Virus genome (UHGV): UHGV-0093680
Length of the DNA: 37,165 bases
Source: a virus
Reading direction: 5' to 3' (one strand)
Positions 3,040 to 37,085 of this stretch are shown in pieces (positions within the stretch are counted from its first letter, which is position 1; each line of letters opens with the position of its first letter). Under the pieces are notes generated by a model, which was not told where the DNA came from, searched no databases, and worked only from the letters and a program-made list of their open reading frames with translations. A program made the position numbers and the translations under genes.

Positions 3040-3200
3040 TTCTTCCCACTCCGCAACATCGCATTCAGATATTTGTTTTGATTCACTGATGGAAAAGAAT
3101 TTCTCTTAAGCAATTCCTCTCTCGATGGCATTGGCTTTACGCGTTGGCGAATAATCATTTCTGCCGGAAGAATGCCGGGATTGTATGCAAGTCCTCTCAT
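3036..3200 (-). CDS. Hypothetical small protein (54 aa)
   Basis: ORF 3036..3233; start chosen at MRGLAYNPG, 6 nt after GAGGAA; ATGA overlap with the downstream gene. Confidence 0.4.
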
Positions 3201-5102: not shown

Positions 5103-5235
5103 TCTTTGGGACTCCTGGCTGATTAAGTATGTCGATAAGGCGTTTCCATCCGTCACGTAATTTACGGGTGATTCGTTCAAGTAAAGATTCGGAAGGGCAG
5201 CCAGCAACAGGCCACCCTGCAATGGCATATTGCAT
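5095..5235 (-). CDS. cIII: CIII (FtsH inhibitor, CII stabiliser)
   Basis: In-frame ATG within ORF 5095..5337 gives MQYAIAGWPVAGCPSESLLERITRKLRDGWKRLIDILNQPGVPKNG, essentially the lambda CIII sequence as I recall it (C-terminus shorter); AAGGAG 7 nt upstream. Confidence 0.85.
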   Translation of the reverse strand: MQYAIAGWPVAGCPSESLLERITRKLRDGWKRLIDILNQPGVPKNG

Positions 5236-5296
5236 GGTGTGCTCCTTATTTATACATAACGAAAAACGCCTCGAGTGAAGCGTTATTGGTATGCAT

Positions 5297-5753: not shown

Positions 5754-6137
5754 TCATCTCGCCGTCAGTTGTTTTGATTTCCGGTATCCTGCTGCGTAAA
5801 GAGCTACATCTGGAAGACATACACCAGTTTCTGGTTGCTTATGTCCAAACTCATTCGCGTACACAATGGCCGCTCTCTCCAGATTGCGTCTGTATTCTTT
5901 CTGTTGCCAGATCACGTCCTGTGCCATGAACTTAATTGGCTTAGCGTCTTCTATGCGCTCAGGCGTTTCGTGAGTACCTTTAGCCTGAATCTGCGCTCTG
6001 CTTAGAGTAGGGCGGTGTAATACTTCTGAACTTATTGCTTCTTCGCGGGCCAGCACGCCGTTAGCTAATGCCTTTGCCTTTAAACGCTCACGACGACGAG
6101 AACGTGAATTGCCTTTGAACTGAGTTCTGCGTGTCAT
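5754..6137 (-). CDS. N: N-type transcription antiterminator (P22 gp24-like arginine-rich motif)
   Basis: In-frame ATG within ORF 5754..6203 (MTRRTQFKGNSRSRRRERLKAKALANG), an arginine-rich N-terminus; AGGAGG 6 nt upstream; a boxB hairpin lies in its leader. Confidence 0.75.
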   Translation of the reverse strand: MTRRTQFKGNSRSRRRERLKAKALANGVLAREEAISSEVLHRPTLSRAQIQAKGTHETPERIEDAKPIKFMAQDVIWQQKEYRRNLERAAIVYANEFGHKQPETGVCLPDVALYAAGYRKSKQLTAR

Positions 6138-15860: not shown

Positions 15861-15935
15861 GGGGCAGTCGTATAAAGGTCATTACGGAAGGCTGTTAACC
15901 TTCTTATCGTGGTTCGAGTCCACGCTGTCCCGCCA
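15861..15935 (+). tRNA. tRNA-like gene, anticodon GUU (Asn) by manual folding
   Basis: Acceptor stem GGGGCAG/CTGTCCC (one G-U pair), anticodon stem GAAGG/CCTTC with loop CTGTTAA, T-arm CGTGG-TTCGAGT-CCACG, discriminator G, encoded CCA; D-stem only 3 bp. Confidence 0.5.
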
Positions 15936-15940
15936 AATAT

Positions 15941-16016
15941 GCTGGTTTAGCTCCAATGGTAGAGCAGTCGCCTTGTAAGCGAATGGGTGGCGGTTCAAGT
16001 CCGTCAACCAGCACCA
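15941..16016 (+). tRNA. tRNA-like gene, anticodon UGU (Thr) by manual folding
   Basis: Acceptor stem GCTGGTT/AACCAGC, D-arm GCTC-CAATGGTA-GAGC, anticodon loop CTTGTAA, T-arm GGCGG-TTCAAGT-CCGTC, encoded CCA; one mismatch in the anticodon stem. Confidence 0.55.
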
Positions 16017-17203: not shown

Positions 17204-17737
17204 ATGAACACCAAAATCAAATACGGCCTGTCGGCTGCCGTTCTGGCGCTGATTGCCGCTGGTGCGCCTGCGCCTGACATTCTCGACCAGTTTCTGGATG
17301 AAAAGGAAGGTAACCACACTACGGCATACCGCGATGGTTCCGGCATCTGGACCATCTGTCGGGGTGCCACGATGGTGGATGGAAAACCCGTTTTTCCCGG
17401 TATGAAACTGTCGAAGGAAAAATGCGACCAGGTTAACGCTATTGAACGTGATAAGGCGCTGGCATGGGTGGATCGCAATATTAAAGTAACACTGACCGAA
17501 CCACAAAAAGCGGGTATCGCGTCATTTTGTCCCTATAACATTGGCCCCGGTAAGTGTTTCCCGTCGACGTTTTATAAGCGGCTGAATGCCGGTGATCGTA
17601 AGGGGGCATGCGAAGCGATTCGCTGGTGGATTAAGGATGGTGGGCGCGATTGCCGCATACGTTCAAATAACTGCTATGGGCAAGTTATTCGTCGTGACCA
17701 GGAAAACGCATTAGCCTGTTGGGGGATAGAGCAGTGA
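17204..17737 (+). CDS. R: SAR endolysin (T4-lysozyme-like fold)
   Basis: N-terminal signal-anchor-release segment [17 protein letters not shown] followed by the lysozyme catalytic region (E…D…T around [20 protein letters not shown]). Confidence 0.85.
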
Positions 17738-18171
17738 GCAGAGTCGCCGCGATTATTTATGCTCTGGTTATCTGCACCATCGTCTGCCTGTCATGGGCTG
17801 TTAATCATTACCGTGATAACGCCATCGCCTACAAAGACCAGCGCGATAAAGCCACATCTATCATCTCTGATATGCAGAAGCGTCAACGTGATGTAGCTGA
17901 ACTCGACGCCAGATACACAAAGGAGCTTGCTGATGCTAACGCGACTATCGAAAGTCTCCGTGCTGATGTTTCTGCTGGTCGTAAGCGCCTGCAAGTCGCC
18001 GCCACCTGTGCAAAGTCAACGACCGGAGCCAGCAGCATGGGCGATGGAGAAAGCCCAAGACTTACAGCAGATGCTGAACTCAATTATTACCGTCTCCGAA
18101 GTGGAATCGACAGGATAACCGCGCAGGTTAACTACCTGCAGGAATACATCAGGACGCAATGCCTGAAATAA
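17734..18171 (+). CDS. Rz: Rz i-spanin
   Basis: GTG start overlapping the endolysin stop (GTGA); N-terminal TM ([17 protein letters not shown]) and coiled coil; aligns by eye with lambda Rz (…[21 protein letters not shown]…). Confidence 0.85.
17927..18118 (+). CDS. Rz1: Rz1 o-spanin, embedded in Rz in the +1 frame
   Basis: Lipobox LLVVSAC followed by a Pro-rich periplasmic region ([16 protein letters not shown]); entirely nested within Rz. Confidence 0.8.
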
Positions 18172-18201
18172 TTTTTTGCAAATCACAAAGTCCATTTAAT
18201 G

Positions 18202-18228
18202 AGCCTCGCGATGCGGGGCTTTTTTTAC
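18202..18228 (+). terminator. Rho-independent terminator after the lysis cassette
   Basis: Hairpin AGCCTCGC-loop-GCGGGGCT followed by TTTTTTT, about 30 nt after the Rz stop. Confidence 0.75.
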
Positions 18229-18375
18229 ATCTGAATTTCACAGCGCATCTCACGCGCATATTACATCACCCGAGCCTTTCAGAAAGTTGAGCCTGAGAAC
18301 TGCCGTATATGGTGGCGACCATCTCGGGGCGGCTTTTCTGTGAGACAGGCTCACTTTCTAAAAGGTAAAGACGCT

Positions 18376-18864
18376 ATGAACCAATTAGAAGAAAAGCTTC
18401 AAAGAATGATTTCCTTATACAAGGAAGATAACTGCCAAAAAGTTCCTGAAAACATCGCAGAGTTAATGGAATTGGCAAGTGAATTTTCTGGCATGCTTAA
18501 GTCGTCAGGTGTTCGGTCAGCGTTCTTTGTTGAAATGCTGATGCACGGCGGACTTATGGCAACAATGAGACGTGTAATGGAAGACCAGAGAAAAGAACCT
18601 CCTCAGGTATACGTTTTGTCATCGAAGAAAACTGGGCTAACCAAAATTGGGTATTCATCCAACATTCCACAACGCATCAAATCGCTTGGCAACTCTGGAC
18701 CAGACTGCTTGAAGCTTGAGTGCCTGATCCCTGGTGGAAGAGAAACTGAAAACATGCTTCATCGCAAATTTGCCGCAAAGAGAAAGCACGGTGAATGGTT
18801 CGCCCTGTCCAAGGATGACATTGAGGGATTGAAATCTGTAGCGATTACTTCTGATGGCTATTAA
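18376..18864 (+). CDS. T5orf172 / GIY-YIG-like domain protein (putative nuclease)
   Basis: C-terminal motif block VYVLSS…LTKIGYSSNIPQRIKSLG…ETENMLHRKFAAKRKHGEWFAL fits the T5orf172 family as I recall it; ATG chosen inside ORF 18340..18864. Confidence 0.6.
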   Translation: MNQLEEKLQRMISLYKEDNCQKVPENIAELMELASEFSGMLKSSGVRSAFFVEMLMHGGLMATMRRVMEDQRKEPPQVYVLSSKKTGLTKIGYSSNIPQRIKSLGNSGPDCLKLECLIPGGRETENMLHRKFAAKRKHGEWFALSKDDIEGLKSVAITSDGY

Positions 18865-18899
18865 TGCTTGTTTAGAGCAATTTTCATAACAACTCTTCA

Positions 18900-18933
18900 T
18901 TACAAAGCCCATTTACGGGTGGGCTTGATAATG
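18900..18933. repeat. Hairpin element copy 1 (ACAAAGCCCA-loop-TGGGCTT-GATAATG)
   Basis: 7-bp stem followed by GATAATG; a second copy with the same stem and flank lies about 435 bp downstream. Confidence 0.5.
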
Positions 18934-19125
18934 AAACCGGAATTTATTCTGGGCCACCAGTTAACGGCAGTACCACGAAACAACCCAAGCCAGAAAGTGG
19001 GGAAATAACACTGGCAGCCACTGAAAGATGAACCTCCTGCCTTATGGCAAAAAAGATTCTTTGTGGTGGCGGACTGATGGAAAGACATCCGCTGAATCGA
19101 TAACGAACAAGTGGAAGATGTTGCG

Positions 19126-19296
19126 ATGGTTTCCGTAAACAAAGACCAGAAGGAAGGCGTTGAATATATCACTGGTGCTGATGGTGTGAAAAGGCCAATG
19201 GCTTATTACAAAGCGGCTGAAGAGAGGGCAAGAATGGAAAATCCCCCTAAATGCGGATCATTTTTCGACATACTGGACCTTCAATGGAAGTTGTGA
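19126..19296 (+). CDS. Hypothetical small protein (about 56 aa)
   Basis: ORF 19111..19296 with an in-frame ATG after GGAAG; followed by a terminator. Confidence 0.35.
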   Translation: MVSVNKDQKEGVEYITGADGVKRPMAYYKAAEERARMENPPKCGSFFDILDLQWKL

Positions 19297-19301
19297 ACAA
19301 C

Positions 19302-19330
19302 TAACAGGTCGCCCAGGCGGCCTTTTTTAT
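19302..19330 (+). terminator. Rho-independent terminator
   Basis: Hairpin AGGTCGC-CCAG-GCGGCCT followed by TTTTTTATT. Confidence 0.6.
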
Positions 19331-19335
19331 TGCTA

Positions 19336-19373
19336 TCACAAAAGCCATTCCTTACTGAGTGGCTTTGATAATG
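19336..19373. repeat. Hairpin element copy 2 (ACAAAAGCCA-loop-TGGCTTT-GATAATG)
   Basis: Same stem sequence and 3' GATAATG flank as copy 1, with a different loop. Confidence 0.5.
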
Positions 19374-19435
19374 GCTTATACCCTACACGGGATAACTTAA
19401 CTGATATCCCTTTTAACGGATAAACGGAGCCAACA

Positions 19436-19678
19436 ATGGCAGAGATTATTCCCATGACTGAAGAACAGAAATTCCAGTTAGAGATTTACAAACTGGTCAT
19501 GAACCAGAACGCAGCCGCAGAAGAAGCATTTCAATTCATTGGCACTGACGAACTGAAGCTTGAGCTATTCAAAATTCACTTCCAGTCAGGCGGCGCTAAT
19601 TCGGATATCACGACCCGCACTATCGAAGCGGTGCGTAAATCGAAGGAAGCGTTAGACCTGTTCACTACCGGAGCATAA
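19436..19678 (+). CDS. Hypothetical protein (80 aa) upstream of the small terminase
   Basis: ORF with GGAG upstream; stop 2 nt before the terS ATG. Confidence 0.5.
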   Translation: MAEIIPMTEEQKFQLEIYKLVMNQNAAAEEAFQFIGTDELKLELFKIHFQSGGANSDITTRTIEAVRKSKEALDLFTTGA

Positions 19679-19680
19679 AC

Positions 19681-20121
19681 ATGGCGCGCCCAACGAAGTA
19701 TCAAGAGGCGTATGCCGAACAGGCACGCAAACTGTGCTTGCTGGGCTGTACAGACGCCGAACTCGCGGACTTCTTTGAAGTTAGCGAGGCAACAATCAAC
19801 AATTGGAAATTGGAATATCCGGAGTTTTTAGAGTCCATAAAAAAGGGTAAGGCAGTCGCTGATGCAGAAGTTAGTGATCGTCTTTATCAACGCGCTATGG
19901 GCTTCGTGGCTCCAGACATCGATATTCGTGTTATTGAAAACAGAATTGTCGAAACTCCTCTTGAGAAGTATTACCCGCCTGATACAACAGCTGCCATCTT
20001 CTGGCTTAAGAACCGACAGAAGGATAAATGGCGCGACAAGGTTGATCACGAGCTAACAGGCAAAGACGGCGGCGCAATCCAGATTGAAACATCACCGATG
20101 AGCACTCTATTCGGAAAATGA
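19681..20121 (+). CDS. Terminase small subunit (Sf6 gp1-like C-terminus)
   Basis: C-terminal tail …ELTGKDGGAIQIETSPMSTLFGK matches the Sf6 small-terminase C-terminus as recalled; N-terminal HTH-like domain; ATGA overlap with terL. Confidence 0.75.
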   Translation: MARPTKYQEAYAEQARKLCLLGCTDAELADFFEVSEATINNWKLEYPEFLESIKKGKAVADAEVSDRLYQRAMGFVAPDIDIRVIENRIVETPLEKYYPPDTTAAIFWLKNRQKDKWRDKVDHELTGKDGGAIQIETSPMSTLFGK

Positions 20122-21533
20122 CCTCGATTAATCCTATCTTTGAACCGTTCATTGAGGCGCATCGCTACAAAGTCGCCAAAGGTGGTCGAGGTAGCGGTAA
20201 GTCATGGGCAATTGCGAGGCTGCTTGTTGAAGCGGCGCGTCGTCAGCCAGTGCGTATTCTCTGCGCTCGTGAACTGCAAAACAGTATCAGCGATTCGGTA
20301 ATCCGGCTGCTTGAAGACACCATAGAGCGTGAAGGGTATACGGCTGAGTTTGAAATTCAGCGTTCCATGATTCGTCATCTCGGAACAAATGCTGAATTCA
20401 TGTTCTATGGCATCAAAAACAACCCGACGAAGATTAAATCGCTCGAAGGCATTGATATCTGCTGGGTGGAAGAAGCGGAAGCGGTAACAAAGGAATCGTG
20501 GGATATCCTGATCCCAACCATCCGTAAGCCGTTCTCTGAAATATGGGTGAGCTTTAACCCGAAGAACATCCTCGACGATACCTATCAGCGATTCGTTGTA
20601 AATCCTCCCGATGATATTTGTCTGCTGACGGTGAACTACACCGACAATCCGCATTTTCCTGAAGTTCTCCGTCTGGAGATGGAAGAGTGTAAACGCAGAA
20701 ATCCGACACTGTATCGTCACATCTGGCTTGGTGAGCCAGTGAGCGCAAGTGATATGGCAATCATCAAACGTGAATGGCTTGAAGCCGCAACCGATGCGCA
20801 CAAGAAACTCGGATGGAAAGCGAAAGGCGCTGTTGTCTCTGCGCATGACCCATCAGATACAGGGCCAGATGCTAAAGGTTATGCATCGCGTCACGGTTCG
20901 GTAGTTAAGCGCATTGCCGAAGGTCTGCTGATGGACATCAACGAGGGTGCTGACTGGGCTACTTCGCTGGCGATTGAAGACGGCGCTGACCATTACCTGT
21001 GGGATGGTGATGGTGTTGGTGCCGGGCTACGCAGACAGACAACGGAAGCGTTCTCCGGCAAGAAAATCACCGCCACGATGTTCAAGGGCAGCGAATCGCC
21101 ATTCGATGAAGATGCACCGTATCAAGCCGGAGCATGGGCTGATGAAGTCGTACAGGGTGACAACGTTCGCACTATTGGCGATGTGTTCCGCAATAAGCGA
21201 GCGCAATTCTATTACGCGCTGGCTGACAGGCTGTATCTGACATATCGGGCGGTTGTTCACGGTGAGTATGCAGACCCCGACGACATGCTGAGTTTCGACA
21301 AAGAAGCGATAGGCGAGAAGATGCTGGAGAAGCTATTTGCAGAACTGACGCAGATTCAGCGCAAATTCAATAACAACGGGAAGCTGGAGCTTATGACTAA
21401 GGTCGAAATGAAGCAGAAGCTCGGTATTCCATCTCCTAACCTGGCTGATGCGCTGATGATGTGTATGCATTGCCCGGAGTCGGCTGCGCAACCCGACTAT
21501 TCCAGTTACTCAATTCCTTGTGGTGTAGGTTGA
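20118..21533 (+). CDS. Terminase large subunit (Sf6/P22 type)
   Basis: Walker A KGGRGSGKS near the N-terminus and Walker B ICWVEE; 471 aa; N-terminus MTSINPIFEPFIEAHRYKVAKGGRGSGKSWAIARLL resembles Sf6 gp2 as recalled. Confidence 0.9.
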   Translation: MTSINPIFEPFIEAHRYKVAKGGRGSGKSWAIARLLVEAARRQPVRILCARELQNSISDSVIRLLEDTIEREGYTAEFEIQRSMIRHLGTNAEFMFYGIKNNPTKIKSLEGIDICWVEEAEAVTKESWDILIPTIRKPFSEIWVSFNPKNILDDTYQRFVVNPPDDICLLTVNYTDNPHFPEVLRLEMEECKRRNPTLYRHIWLGEPVSASDMAIIKREWLEAATDAHKKLGWKAKGAVVSAHDPSDTGPDAKGYASRHGSVVKRIAEGLLMDINEGADWATSLAIEDGADHYLWDGDGVGAGLRRQTTEAFSGKKITATMFKGSESPFDEDAPYQAGAWADEVVQGDNVRTIGDVFRNKRAQFYYALADRLYLTYRAVVHGEYADPDDMLSFDKEAIGEKMLEKLFAELTQIQRKFNNNGKLELMTKVEMKQKLGIPSPNLADALMMCMHCPESAAQPDYSSYSIPCGVG

Positions 21534-36376: not shown

Positions 36377-36576
36377 GTAAAGAATGTTGTTTCTGCGGCA
36401 TTAGCGAATCAGACGCTGATCAAACATACATTTACTCTAAAGAAACAGGTCGGATGCTGTGTAGTGACTGCGTGTTGGACATCATAAGATACAAGCATCT
36501 TGGATGTTCTGCCAGCATTAGCAATATAGGTGAAGTATATGAAGGGAAAGATATAACTGATAGATCAGAAAGTTGA
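36373..36576 (+). CDS. Small Cys-rich (zinc-ribbon-like) protein (67 aa)
   Basis: CFCG…CSDC pattern; ATGA overlap with the arc-like stop. Confidence 0.45.
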
Positions 36577-36638
36577 AGCCCCAACTGCGGGAACAGTCAG
36601 GGCTTCGGTTGTCAGTAAATCCGTGGAGAAAAACCAAC

Positions 36639-37085
36639 ATGAATAGTATAGCAATTTTAGAAGCAGTGAACACCTCTTACGTACCATTCAACGGTCAGCA
36701 AATTATCACCGCCATGGCTGCCGGAGTTGCATATGTTGCGATGAAGCCAATCGTTGAAAACCTCGGAATGAGCTGGGGTACTCAGCAACAAAAACTTATG
36801 AAACAACTAGATAAGTTCAACTGTATTCATATGAATATGGTTGCTGCTGATGGAAAGCTTCGTAAGCTACTCTGCCTTCCTTTGAAGAAGTTAAATGGAT
36901 GGCTGTTCAGCATCAACCCCGAGAAAGTTCGTGCTGACATCCGCGATAAACTGATTCAGTACCAGGAAGAATGCTTTACTGTGCTGCATGACTACTGGAC
37001 AAAGGGAAAGGCAGAAAATGCACGTAAGAAAACATCTGTTGATGACAGGACTCCGCTTCGTGATGCTGTAAATATGCTGGTCTGA
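36639..37085 (+). CDS. Short antirepressor-like protein (N-terminal domain only)
   Basis: In-frame ATG within ORF 36573..37085 after GGAGA; about 148 aa; the assignment rests mainly on its position after arc, with only a weak recollection of P22 Ant N-terminal similarity. Confidence 0.5.

Follow-up and report, generated by a model that had tools for sequence, protein, structure and literature searches.

This study concerns a family of RNA hairpins in temperate phages of the Enterobacterales, which stand at the 3′ ends of accessory cassettes, almost always between the genes for lysis and those for packaging. Two members lie on the plus strand of UHGV virus genome UHGV-0093680 (37,165 nt; this whole stretch of DNA is called the window throughout), at positions 18896-18935 (hairpin 1) and 19332-19375 (hairpin 2). 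The window is a P22-like temperate phage (Lederbergvirus; HK620/CUS-3-like), and at the DNA level the region is most similar to P22-like, HK97-like and Shiga toxin (Stx) phages. Judged by their sequence and structure, these hairpins are probably processing and stability signals for ribonuclease III (RNase III) of the T7 type, which would also serve as short-homology joints of the phage mosaic. An earlier reading of the same DNA, made by a model from its letters alone (the original prediction), had noticed a duplicated hairpin here and offered three explanations for it: an RNA processing or stability element, a recombination scar, or a binding site. That observation was essentially right, and the first of the three explanations is the best supported.

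Structure and distribution of the hairpin family

Both hairpins share a bipartite architecture of 40-44 nt, which consists of a lower stem of 5-7 bp, a 2x2 CA/GA internal loop, an upper stem of 9-10 bp and a variable apical loop. Written as RNA, hairpin 1 (allele A) reads UUCAUUA-CA-AAGCCCAUU-UACG-GGUGGGCUU-GA-UAAUGAA, and hairpin 2 (allele B) reads GCUAUCA-CA-AAAGCCAUUC-CUUACU-GAGUGGCUUU-GA-UAAUGGC. Their folding energies, -19.3 kcal/mol for hairpin 1 and -18.6 kcal/mol for hairpin 2, correspond to z-scores of -4.8 and -4.9 against dinucleotide shuffles, and the presence of two strong hairpins at this place was confirmed. The 7-bp stem once described as identical in both copies is in fact AAGCCCA/TGGGCTT in one and AAAGCCA/TGGCTTT in the other, with a one-base shift on both arms, the two upper stems being related and non-identical. 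The motif GATAATG does follow both hairpin cores (18927-18933 and 19367-19373), but it had been taken for a 3′ flank, whereas it comprises one side of the internal loop and the 3′ half of the lower stem: its TAATG pairs with an upstream CATTA in hairpin 1, and with TATCA, through one C-A mismatch, in hairpin 2. The spacing of about 435 bp held (436 nt from start to start, 440 nt between the GATAATG copies), and so did the lack of a U run, since the hairpins are followed by AAACCGG (hairpin 1) and GCTTATACC (hairpin 2).

A covariance model of the lambdoid hairpins (model R1, not the T7 site of that name; the lambdoid model below) found exactly two copies in the 37-kb window, hairpin 2 at 59.4 bits and hairpin 1 at 55.1 bits, followed by the antisense strands of both at about 16 bits and by nothing else above 11.7 bits; the model was built from these hairpin sequences, and the independent evidence comes from the wider family. 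Rfam gave no match at gathering thresholds, and a permissive Rfam search of positions 18200-19800 returned only chance-level matches (E >= 0.67), none of them over the hairpins.

This wider family was reached by several routes. In an alignment of the region with HK620, Kapi1, CUS-3 and HK106, hairpin 1 is conserved in HK620, HK106 and Kapi1 behind differing upstream genes, and the place of hairpin 2 is taken in the aligned relatives by a third allele, C (GUUAUUG-CA-GAGGCCAUUC-AAU-GAGUGGUCUC-GA-CAAUGGC), which differs from the allele of the window by several double changes from A-U to G-C and keeps the CA/GA loop. The conserved leader downstream of the hairpin was then used as an anchor to retrieve 120 loci from IMG/VR, and all 120 carry an allele A, B or C hairpin directly before the leader. 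Across 31 distinct lambdoid copies, 96.8% of the cells are paired, against 31-49% in slid controls, and 9 of the 17 pairs have changed on both sides. An IMG/VR pattern scan in which only the base of the hairpin was fixed (CATTACAG...GATAATG) yielded 127 matches; 75 of them are hairpins, among which over 50 upper stems can be distinguished. When 66 further distinct copies were aligned to the model, 95.1% of the cells were paired and 13 of the 17 pairs had changed on both sides. Throughout the alleles of the window and the aligned family, the CA/GA internal loop is invariant, within a base of the form CAUUA-CA/GA-UAAUG.

Moreover, a scan of bacterial genomes, taking one genome per species and leaving 6+6 stem positions free, recovered 79 loci, all but one labelled Enterobacterales. 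These prophages belong to dozens of Enterobacterales genera, among them Serratia, Yersinia, Pectobacterium, Erwinia, Pantoea, Klebsiella and Citrobacter. The sole exception is a record titled Sphingomonas sp. NPDC019816, in which both hairpin and flank look enterobacterial, and contamination or mislabelling is likely. At the free stem positions of the 79 loci, 95.2% of the cells are paired (60.4 +/- 3.6% after shuffling), with 21 G-U cells against 2 A-C cells. This excess of G-U over A-C indicates that the sense strand of the late genes is the one that folds. Lack of conservation in related genomes and random recurrence of the stem had been set beforehand as refuting tests; the element is conserved, and its stem does not occur at random positions.

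The strand signal also bears on the binding-site explanation. The inverted repeat, with its conserved outer half-sites CATTA...TAATG, has the look of a palindromic DNA operator for a dimeric protein. However, the conserved G-U pairs and the asymmetric internal loop speak against a double-stranded palindrome: the CA/GA loop and the U-G pair would be mismatches between the half-sites, the 21 to 2 ratio is that of a folded RNA strand, and the inner arms covary freely. Nor does a promoter lie nearby, as a promoter scan reported no promoter-like site at or beside either hairpin, and we regard an operator as extremely improbable.

The family is widespread. Allele A occurs in 147 phage records and in 1364 of 5426 complete E. 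coli genomes, about a quarter of them; the other alleles were found in 31, 45 and 22 phage records, including phi80, Pectobacterium phage ZF40, ST64B, cdtI and Klebsiella prophages. The lambdoid model finds 1-2 copies per locus (100 loci), and one copy each in the whole genomes of CUS-3 and P22. The P22 copy lies at 40309-40349 (BK000583), with nothing annotated on the element; the annotated P22 'orf25' (40329-40406) starts within the 3′ arm of the hairpin and is probably not a real gene, and the P22 leader is broken by an insertion just past TTATACC. No family member was found in the lambda late region 44500-48502, and no copy in the K-12 prophages DLP12 and Qin, so that K-12 RNase III maps are uninformative here. 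None of the annotated records retrieved places a feature on the element, save that of phage Ayreon, which calls it a 'terminator'. The family is thus unannotated and absent from Rfam, and we did not find it described in the searchable literature on P22-like and lambdoid phages, a search that did not reach key papers on lambdoid mosaicism, so that a prior description is possible.

In the annotated genomes inspected, the element lies 3′ of the lysis genes, after an accessory gene, and co-oriented with the late genes. Its carriers are P22-like, HK97-like, Stx, phi80, ZF40 and ST64B phages, and the genes that precede it include hkbL, rha, KilA-N, T5orf172, a Mom-like gene and DUF2560 homologues. 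Comparison of 92 distinct upstream sequences shows that a hairpin most often begins 0-4 nt past a stop codon, or a few bases past the U run of a true terminator. A divergent member (locus L066, 8751-8790, minus strand; CCCATTACAGGATGCATTTATGAGTGCATCCATTAATGGT) has a CA/AT internal loop and follows an HNH-like open reading frame (ORF) of 173 aa; it lies upstream of a holin gene, and thus the family is not strictly limited to the post-lysis region.

Several other identities were considered and rejected. Upon sequence inspection, GATAATG gave no consistent match as a -35/-10 element, an IHF site, a DnaA box or a dif-like site, and it is not the start of a conserved peptide either, as the ORFs beginning at its ATG differ between copies. 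The Pas small RNAs of prophages come from another locus, beside the Q gene and upstream of the holin and lysozyme genes. The bsq boundary sequences annotated in CUS-3 and Sf6 are sited elsewhere, and none covers the element.

Resemblance to RNase III processing sites

The comparison with T7 was prompted by the apical CAUUC-loop-GAGUG of the family, which stands on a 10-bp stem above an internal loop. The arms of hairpin 2 (AAAGCCAUUC/GAGUGGCUUU) and those of T7 R1.1 (AAGGUCAUUC/GAGUGGCCUU) are identical at 8/10 and 9/10 positions, and hairpin 1 in turn resembles T7 R1 (CAGGUCAUC UGCG GGUGGCCUG AAU↓AGG, the arrow marking the cut). An upper stem of 9-10 bp is common to the hairpins studied here and the T7 sites. 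When the lambdoid model, which had been built from lambdoid hairpins only, was run unfiltered on the whole T7 genome, its best matches fell at 5861-5884 (AAGGUCAUUC GCAA GAGUGGCCUU, between genes 1 and 1.1), 3105-3141, 36830-36853 and 1441-1465. We take these to be the hairpins of R1.1, R1, R18.5 and R0.5, on the site coordinates reportedly given by Dunn and Studier in 1983. Counting antisense hits, these four hairpins make up 6 of the 9 matches in T7, and no T7 terminator was matched anywhere in that genome.

The T7 GenBank records do not list the RNase III sites, and these coordinates were cross-checked in three ways. Each of the early cleavage positions shows the architecture expected, a hairpin of 9-10 bp followed by UAU↓GAU or similar; the details agree with those published for R1.1 (a GCAA loop, and U:G and C:G pairs in the middle box; PMC1540722); and the T3 record is annotated. 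The best-scoring match of the lambdoid model in T3 falls within a feature labelled 'RNase III recognition site R1.3' (18.7 bits, E = 0.0055); R0.5 and R1.1 contain others. The reverse test, with a model (R2) built from 7 T7 sites, put hairpin 2 at the top of the matches in the window and hairpin 1 in fifth place.

Substrate recognition by E. coli RNase III is well characterized. Its distal box consists of a U-A pair followed by a U-G pair adjoining the loop (Pertzev and Nicholson 2006, PMC1540722), and further determinants are a middle box, a proximal box and a minimum helix of 11 bp between the loop and the cut (PMC1540722). At the distal-box positions, U-A is present in 60 and U-G in 46 of the 66 family copies. 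The top of hairpin 2 has a C-G closing pair, then U-A, then U-G; that of hairpin 1 is instead like T7 R1, with C/U-G, U-G and A-U. Internal loops restrict RNase III to one strand, which leaves a 3′ hairpin that shields the RNA from 3′-5′ exonucleases (PMC1540722).

These features, together with the covariation on the sense strand, are what make RNA processing or stability the best supported of the explanations first offered. In the mechanism that we propose, the elements would be stem-loops of the late, Q-antiterminated transcript, acting as signals for the host RNase III of the type known from the T7/T3 early region. The sense RNA would fold into the CAUUA/UAAUG lower stem, the CA/GA loop and a 10-bp upper stem, with U-A and U-G below the pair that closes the loop. 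By register with T7 R1.1 and R1, the predicted cut falls in the 3′ strand, directly following 18929 and 19369 (GAU↓AAUG). The upstream accessory message would then be left with a protective 3′ hairpin, uncoupled from the message downstream, and each accessory cassette could thereby be insulated from its neighbours.

Several observations weigh against such a role. The T7/T3 and reciprocal matches have marginal E-values (0.005-4), and the T7-derived model scores hairpin 2 higher in antisense (18.5 bits) than in sense (17.0 bits). Although the invariant CA/GA stands at the expected distance, the 2x2 internal loop is smaller than the asymmetric loops of T7; with so small a loop, RNase III might cut both strands and destabilise the upstream message, as at lambda sib. 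The lower stem is short (5-7 bp), and with about 17-19 bp the whole helix would be among the shorter RNase III substrates, which span about two helical turns overall. Agreement with the proximal box is partial. Beside the scissile bond, the canonical order of pairs is G-C, A-U/U-A, A-U, A-U/U-A (PMC1540722), and the copies of the window have A-U at position 1, where G-C is optimal: in the R1.1 register, hairpin 2 shows A-U, A-U, A-U and an A.G mismatch, canonical at positions 2 and 3 and not at position 1. Proximal position 2 is C-G in 24 of the 66 family copies, and this pair inhibits binding in the minimal R1.1 substrate (PMC1540722). Moreover, what is known of RNase III recognition does not account for the invariant CAUUA-CA/GA-UAAUG base, which may point to a further factor or to a constraint at the DNA level.

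Two other RNA-level explanations have to be weighed here. A generic barrier to 3′ exonucleases, which would block PNPase and RNase II after cuts made elsewhere and without RNase III, is suggested by a stable hairpin with no U run placed directly past stop codons inside an operon, a placement like that of the repetitive extragenic palindromic (REP) elements and other intercistronic stabilisers. However, a thermodynamic block needs neither an invariant base nor an internal loop, a fixed 10-bp upper stem or the U-A/U-G pairs, and it gives no reason for a likeness to the T7/T3 RNase III sites rather than to the T7 terminators, which the lambdoid model leaves unmatched; we consider this explanation unlikely. 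A terminator or attenuator acting on unmodified RNA polymerase is highly improbable. It would fit a hairpin with G and C in its stem inside an operon, and the label in the Ayreon record, but there is no U run, a terminator scan omits both hairpins yet reports 19306-19330, and a second terminator would be redundant in the several cassettes that already have a canonical one just before the hairpin. In Ayreon itself (MF807953, locus L131, 1801-1846), the hairpin annotated as 'terminator' has no U run, and a canonical terminator lies just upstream.

Cassettes and mosaic boundaries at the lysis-packaging junction

The RNase III-type signals proposed above also coincide with the joints of the phage mosaic. 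Among otherwise unrelated arrangements, homology starts and stops at the ends of the hairpin. In 126 distinct triples of flank, hairpin and flank, 22 upstream and 7 downstream flank classes reassort, and 737 pairs have hairpins at least 90% identical with unrelated upstream flanks. At least 5 unrelated cassettes join the conserved block between the two hairpins (Table 1) at one identical nucleotide, after GGAAAGACATC; every one of these inserts has an allele-B hairpin at its 3′ end, and loci with no insert carry allele C at this site. Only one hairpin is present in about half of the loci, with allele A joined directly to the leader, as would be expected if the two copies of the window recombined across their shared TTGATAATG. 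In Salmonella phage FSL SP-016 (locus L128, 2499-2535), a copy is broken off within its 3′ arm, after TGGGCTTG and before TTGAC, which places a recombination breakpoint inside the element.

Since the element is kept while its flanks vary, it would serve phage recombinases as a short homology of 35-45 bp at which modules are joined or deleted. This role would put the element exactly at mosaic boundaries, and would account for the many relatives with one fused hairpin where the window has two. The recombination scar of the original prediction, therefore, survives as a secondary property of the element, given near-identical hairpins amid unrelated flanks and homology edges that are the hairpin ends.

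The same data could be read the other way round, with a dedicated site of cassette exchange at the DNA level as the primary function and any RNA role as secondary. The element would then be the crossover point of a site- or structure-specific recombination, similar to the attC sites of integrons, where a conserved base also accompanies a variable yet paired middle. The exact stop of homology at the hairpin ends, the unrelated cassettes entering at one nucleotide and each ending in allele B, and a strand bias compatible with a single-stranded DNA substrate all agree with such a site. Nevertheless, no recombinase is consistently linked to the element, whose carriers range from P22-like phages to phi80, ZF40 and Stx phages with differing gene sets; its base is unlike the attC R-box consensus; the U-A/U-G pairs and the likeness to T7/T3 RNase III sites would be left unexplained; and short-homology recombination of the Erf/Red type already accounts for the junctions. 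We therefore find a dedicated exchange site decidedly unlikely. An integron attC proper was rejected, as the base GCATTAC.../...GATAATGC has no GTTRRRY (R''/R' being RYYYAAC / GTTRRRY), and the annotated records examined show no integron integrase close to any copy. A bolder and likewise unlikely idea combines both roles: ORF-plus-hairpin units might be exchanged among temperate Enterobacterales phages by a recombination that has the hairpin as its target, either by way of the conserved base or as a folded single strand, with RNase III-type processing insulating each new cassette. If so, the lysis-packaging junction would be a natural plug-and-play expression site, the phage analogue of integron or T4 PeSL shuffling.

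The features of the locus are collected in Table 1. As first noted, the hairpins are set between the lysis and packaging modules, with lysozyme and Rz on one side and the terminases on the other. The stop codon of the 174-aa accessory gene lies 31 nt upstream of hairpin 1, and other phages have unrelated genes in its place, before the same hairpin. The small ORF reported between the two copies does exist, with 56 aa, but the interval also contains a conserved block of about 150 nt and an intrinsic terminator. The block hardly varies among P22-like and HK97-like phages, and a further small ORF (19028-19138) starts in it, whose first 21 codons are conserved (MNLLPYGKKDSLWWRTDGKTS) and whose C-terminus varies with the downstream sequence. 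The terminator at 19306-19330 is located within the late operon, directly before hairpin 2, and the order of terminator and then hairpin recurs with several unrelated cassettes; a hairpin so placed would be transcribed mainly by antiterminated polymerase.

Table 1. Coordinates of the two hairpins and of other features in the window
Feature	Position	Strand	Description or basis
Hairpin 1 (allele A)	18896-18935	+	
Hairpin 1, lower stem	18896-18902 / 18929-18935	+	
Hairpin 1, internal loop	18903-18904 / 18927-18928	+	CA / GA
Hairpin 1, upper stem	18905-18913 / 18918-18926	+	
Hairpin 1, loop	18914-18917	+	UACG
Hairpin 2 (allele B)	19332-19375	+	
Hairpin 2, lower stem	19332-19338 / 19369-19375	+	
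Hairpin 2, internal loop	19339-19340 / 19367-19368	+	CA / GA
Hairpin 2, upper stem	19341-19350 / 19357-19366	+	
Hairpin 2, loop	19351-19356	+	
Lysozyme	17204-17737		
Rz	17719-18171		
Terminator after Rz	18201-18221		
Upstream accessory gene (T5orf172/MUG113)	18340-18864	+	174 aa; ORF list; Pfam PF13455, PF10544; phrog_4284
Conserved block between hairpins	18936-19089	+	about 150 nt; alignment with relatives
Inserted cassette	about 19090-19331	+	absent from HK620, Kapi1, CUS-3 and HK106 (alignment)
ORF in cassette	19126-19296	+	56 aa; phrog_5425 (PHROG match)
Intrinsic terminator in cassette	19306-19330	+	terminator scan
Conserved leader after hairpin 2	19376-19435	+	small hairpin and U run; ribosome-binding site of the DUF2560 gene
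DUF2560 gene (hkbM / P22 orf80 homologue)	19436-19678	+	Pfam PF10834, E = 1e-43; annotation of HK620, CUS-3 and Sf6
Small terminase	19681-20121		
Large terminase	20118-21533		
sar RNA	36571-36638	-	Rfam
Lambda cIII thermoregulator	5190-5248	-	Rfam
Two tRNAs	15861-16013	+	Rfam

Past hairpin 2, the variable region gives way to conserved genes, of which the DUF2560 gene comes first. The leader before it contains a second small hairpin with a U run (19389-19414; GGGATA...TATCCCTTTT), and its conservation extends to phages (Ayreon, Ss-VASD) in which another gene follows it in place of DUF2560. Rfam also matched sar RNA, the lambda cIII thermoregulator and, past the late promoter region, two tRNA genes in the window, all of them ordinary for a P22-like phage.

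Significance and comparison with known systems

If RNase III cuts these hairpins, the late mRNA of P22-like, HK97-like, Stx, phi80-like and many other temperate phages would be processed past their accessory genes, a kind of late-mRNA processing for which we found no description for these phages in the searchable literature. The element would then provide a simple rule for finding accessory cassettes (moron or anti-defence genes), explain why mosaic joints cluster at hairpins, and offer natural insulator parts akin to the T7 sites. RNase III sites from T7 are already in synthetic-biology use (PMC3643576). As the element is common yet absent from Rfam, a curated family would improve annotation.

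The closest known counterparts are the T7/T3 RNase III sites (R0.3, R0.5, R1, R1.1, R1.3, R4.7 and R18.5). These have in common with the hairpins of temperate phages an upper stem of 9-10 bp over an internal loop and a lower stem, the U-A/U-G pairs adjoining the loop-closing pair, similar arms (AAGGUCAUUC/GAGUGGCCUU against AAAGCCAUUC/GAGUGGCUUU), the lack of a U run, and a location, within a polycistronic message, at or just past the stop codon of the preceding gene. They differ in their internal loop, which is about 4x5-6 in T7/T3 and 2x2 (CA/GA) here, and in the conserved CAUUA/UAAUG lower stem of the present family. The setting differs too: in temperate phages the elements described here belong to the late operon, which the host polymerase transcribes under Q antitermination, and lie at mosaic boundaries, and their cleavage is predicted.

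Another counterpart is lambda sib/tI, a hairpin 3′ of int in an antiterminated phage transcript, which is a target of the host RNase III in retroregulation. At sib, both strands are cut and the upstream message is destabilised. The likeness here is one of type and setting. The attC sites and REP elements are likewise imperfect palindromes that follow ORFs, with structure more conserved than sequence, a conserved base and strand specificity, and REPs stabilise upstream mRNA. In contrast to both, the hairpins of this family have no R-box consensus and no linked integrase or RAYT gene, and occur in 1-3 copies per genome within one region only.

As to the role at junctions, Clark and colleagues in 2001 reportedly described short conserved boundary sequences at lambdoid module junctions, and proposed that they promote homologous exchange; these sequences have a similar junction role, but are not defined by a conserved secondary structure. 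A comparable phenomenon in T4-type phages is that of the PeSL (promoter early stem-loop) motifs, short stem-loops that flank non-essential ORFs in hyperplastic regions, where modules are lost or exchanged when adjacent copies recombine (Arbiol et al. 2010, PMC2839356). Each PeSL combines a strong early promoter (sigma-70) with a functional terminator stem-loop (PMC2839356), whereas the element found at the lysis-packaging junction, with neither promoter nor U run, resembles an RNase III site.

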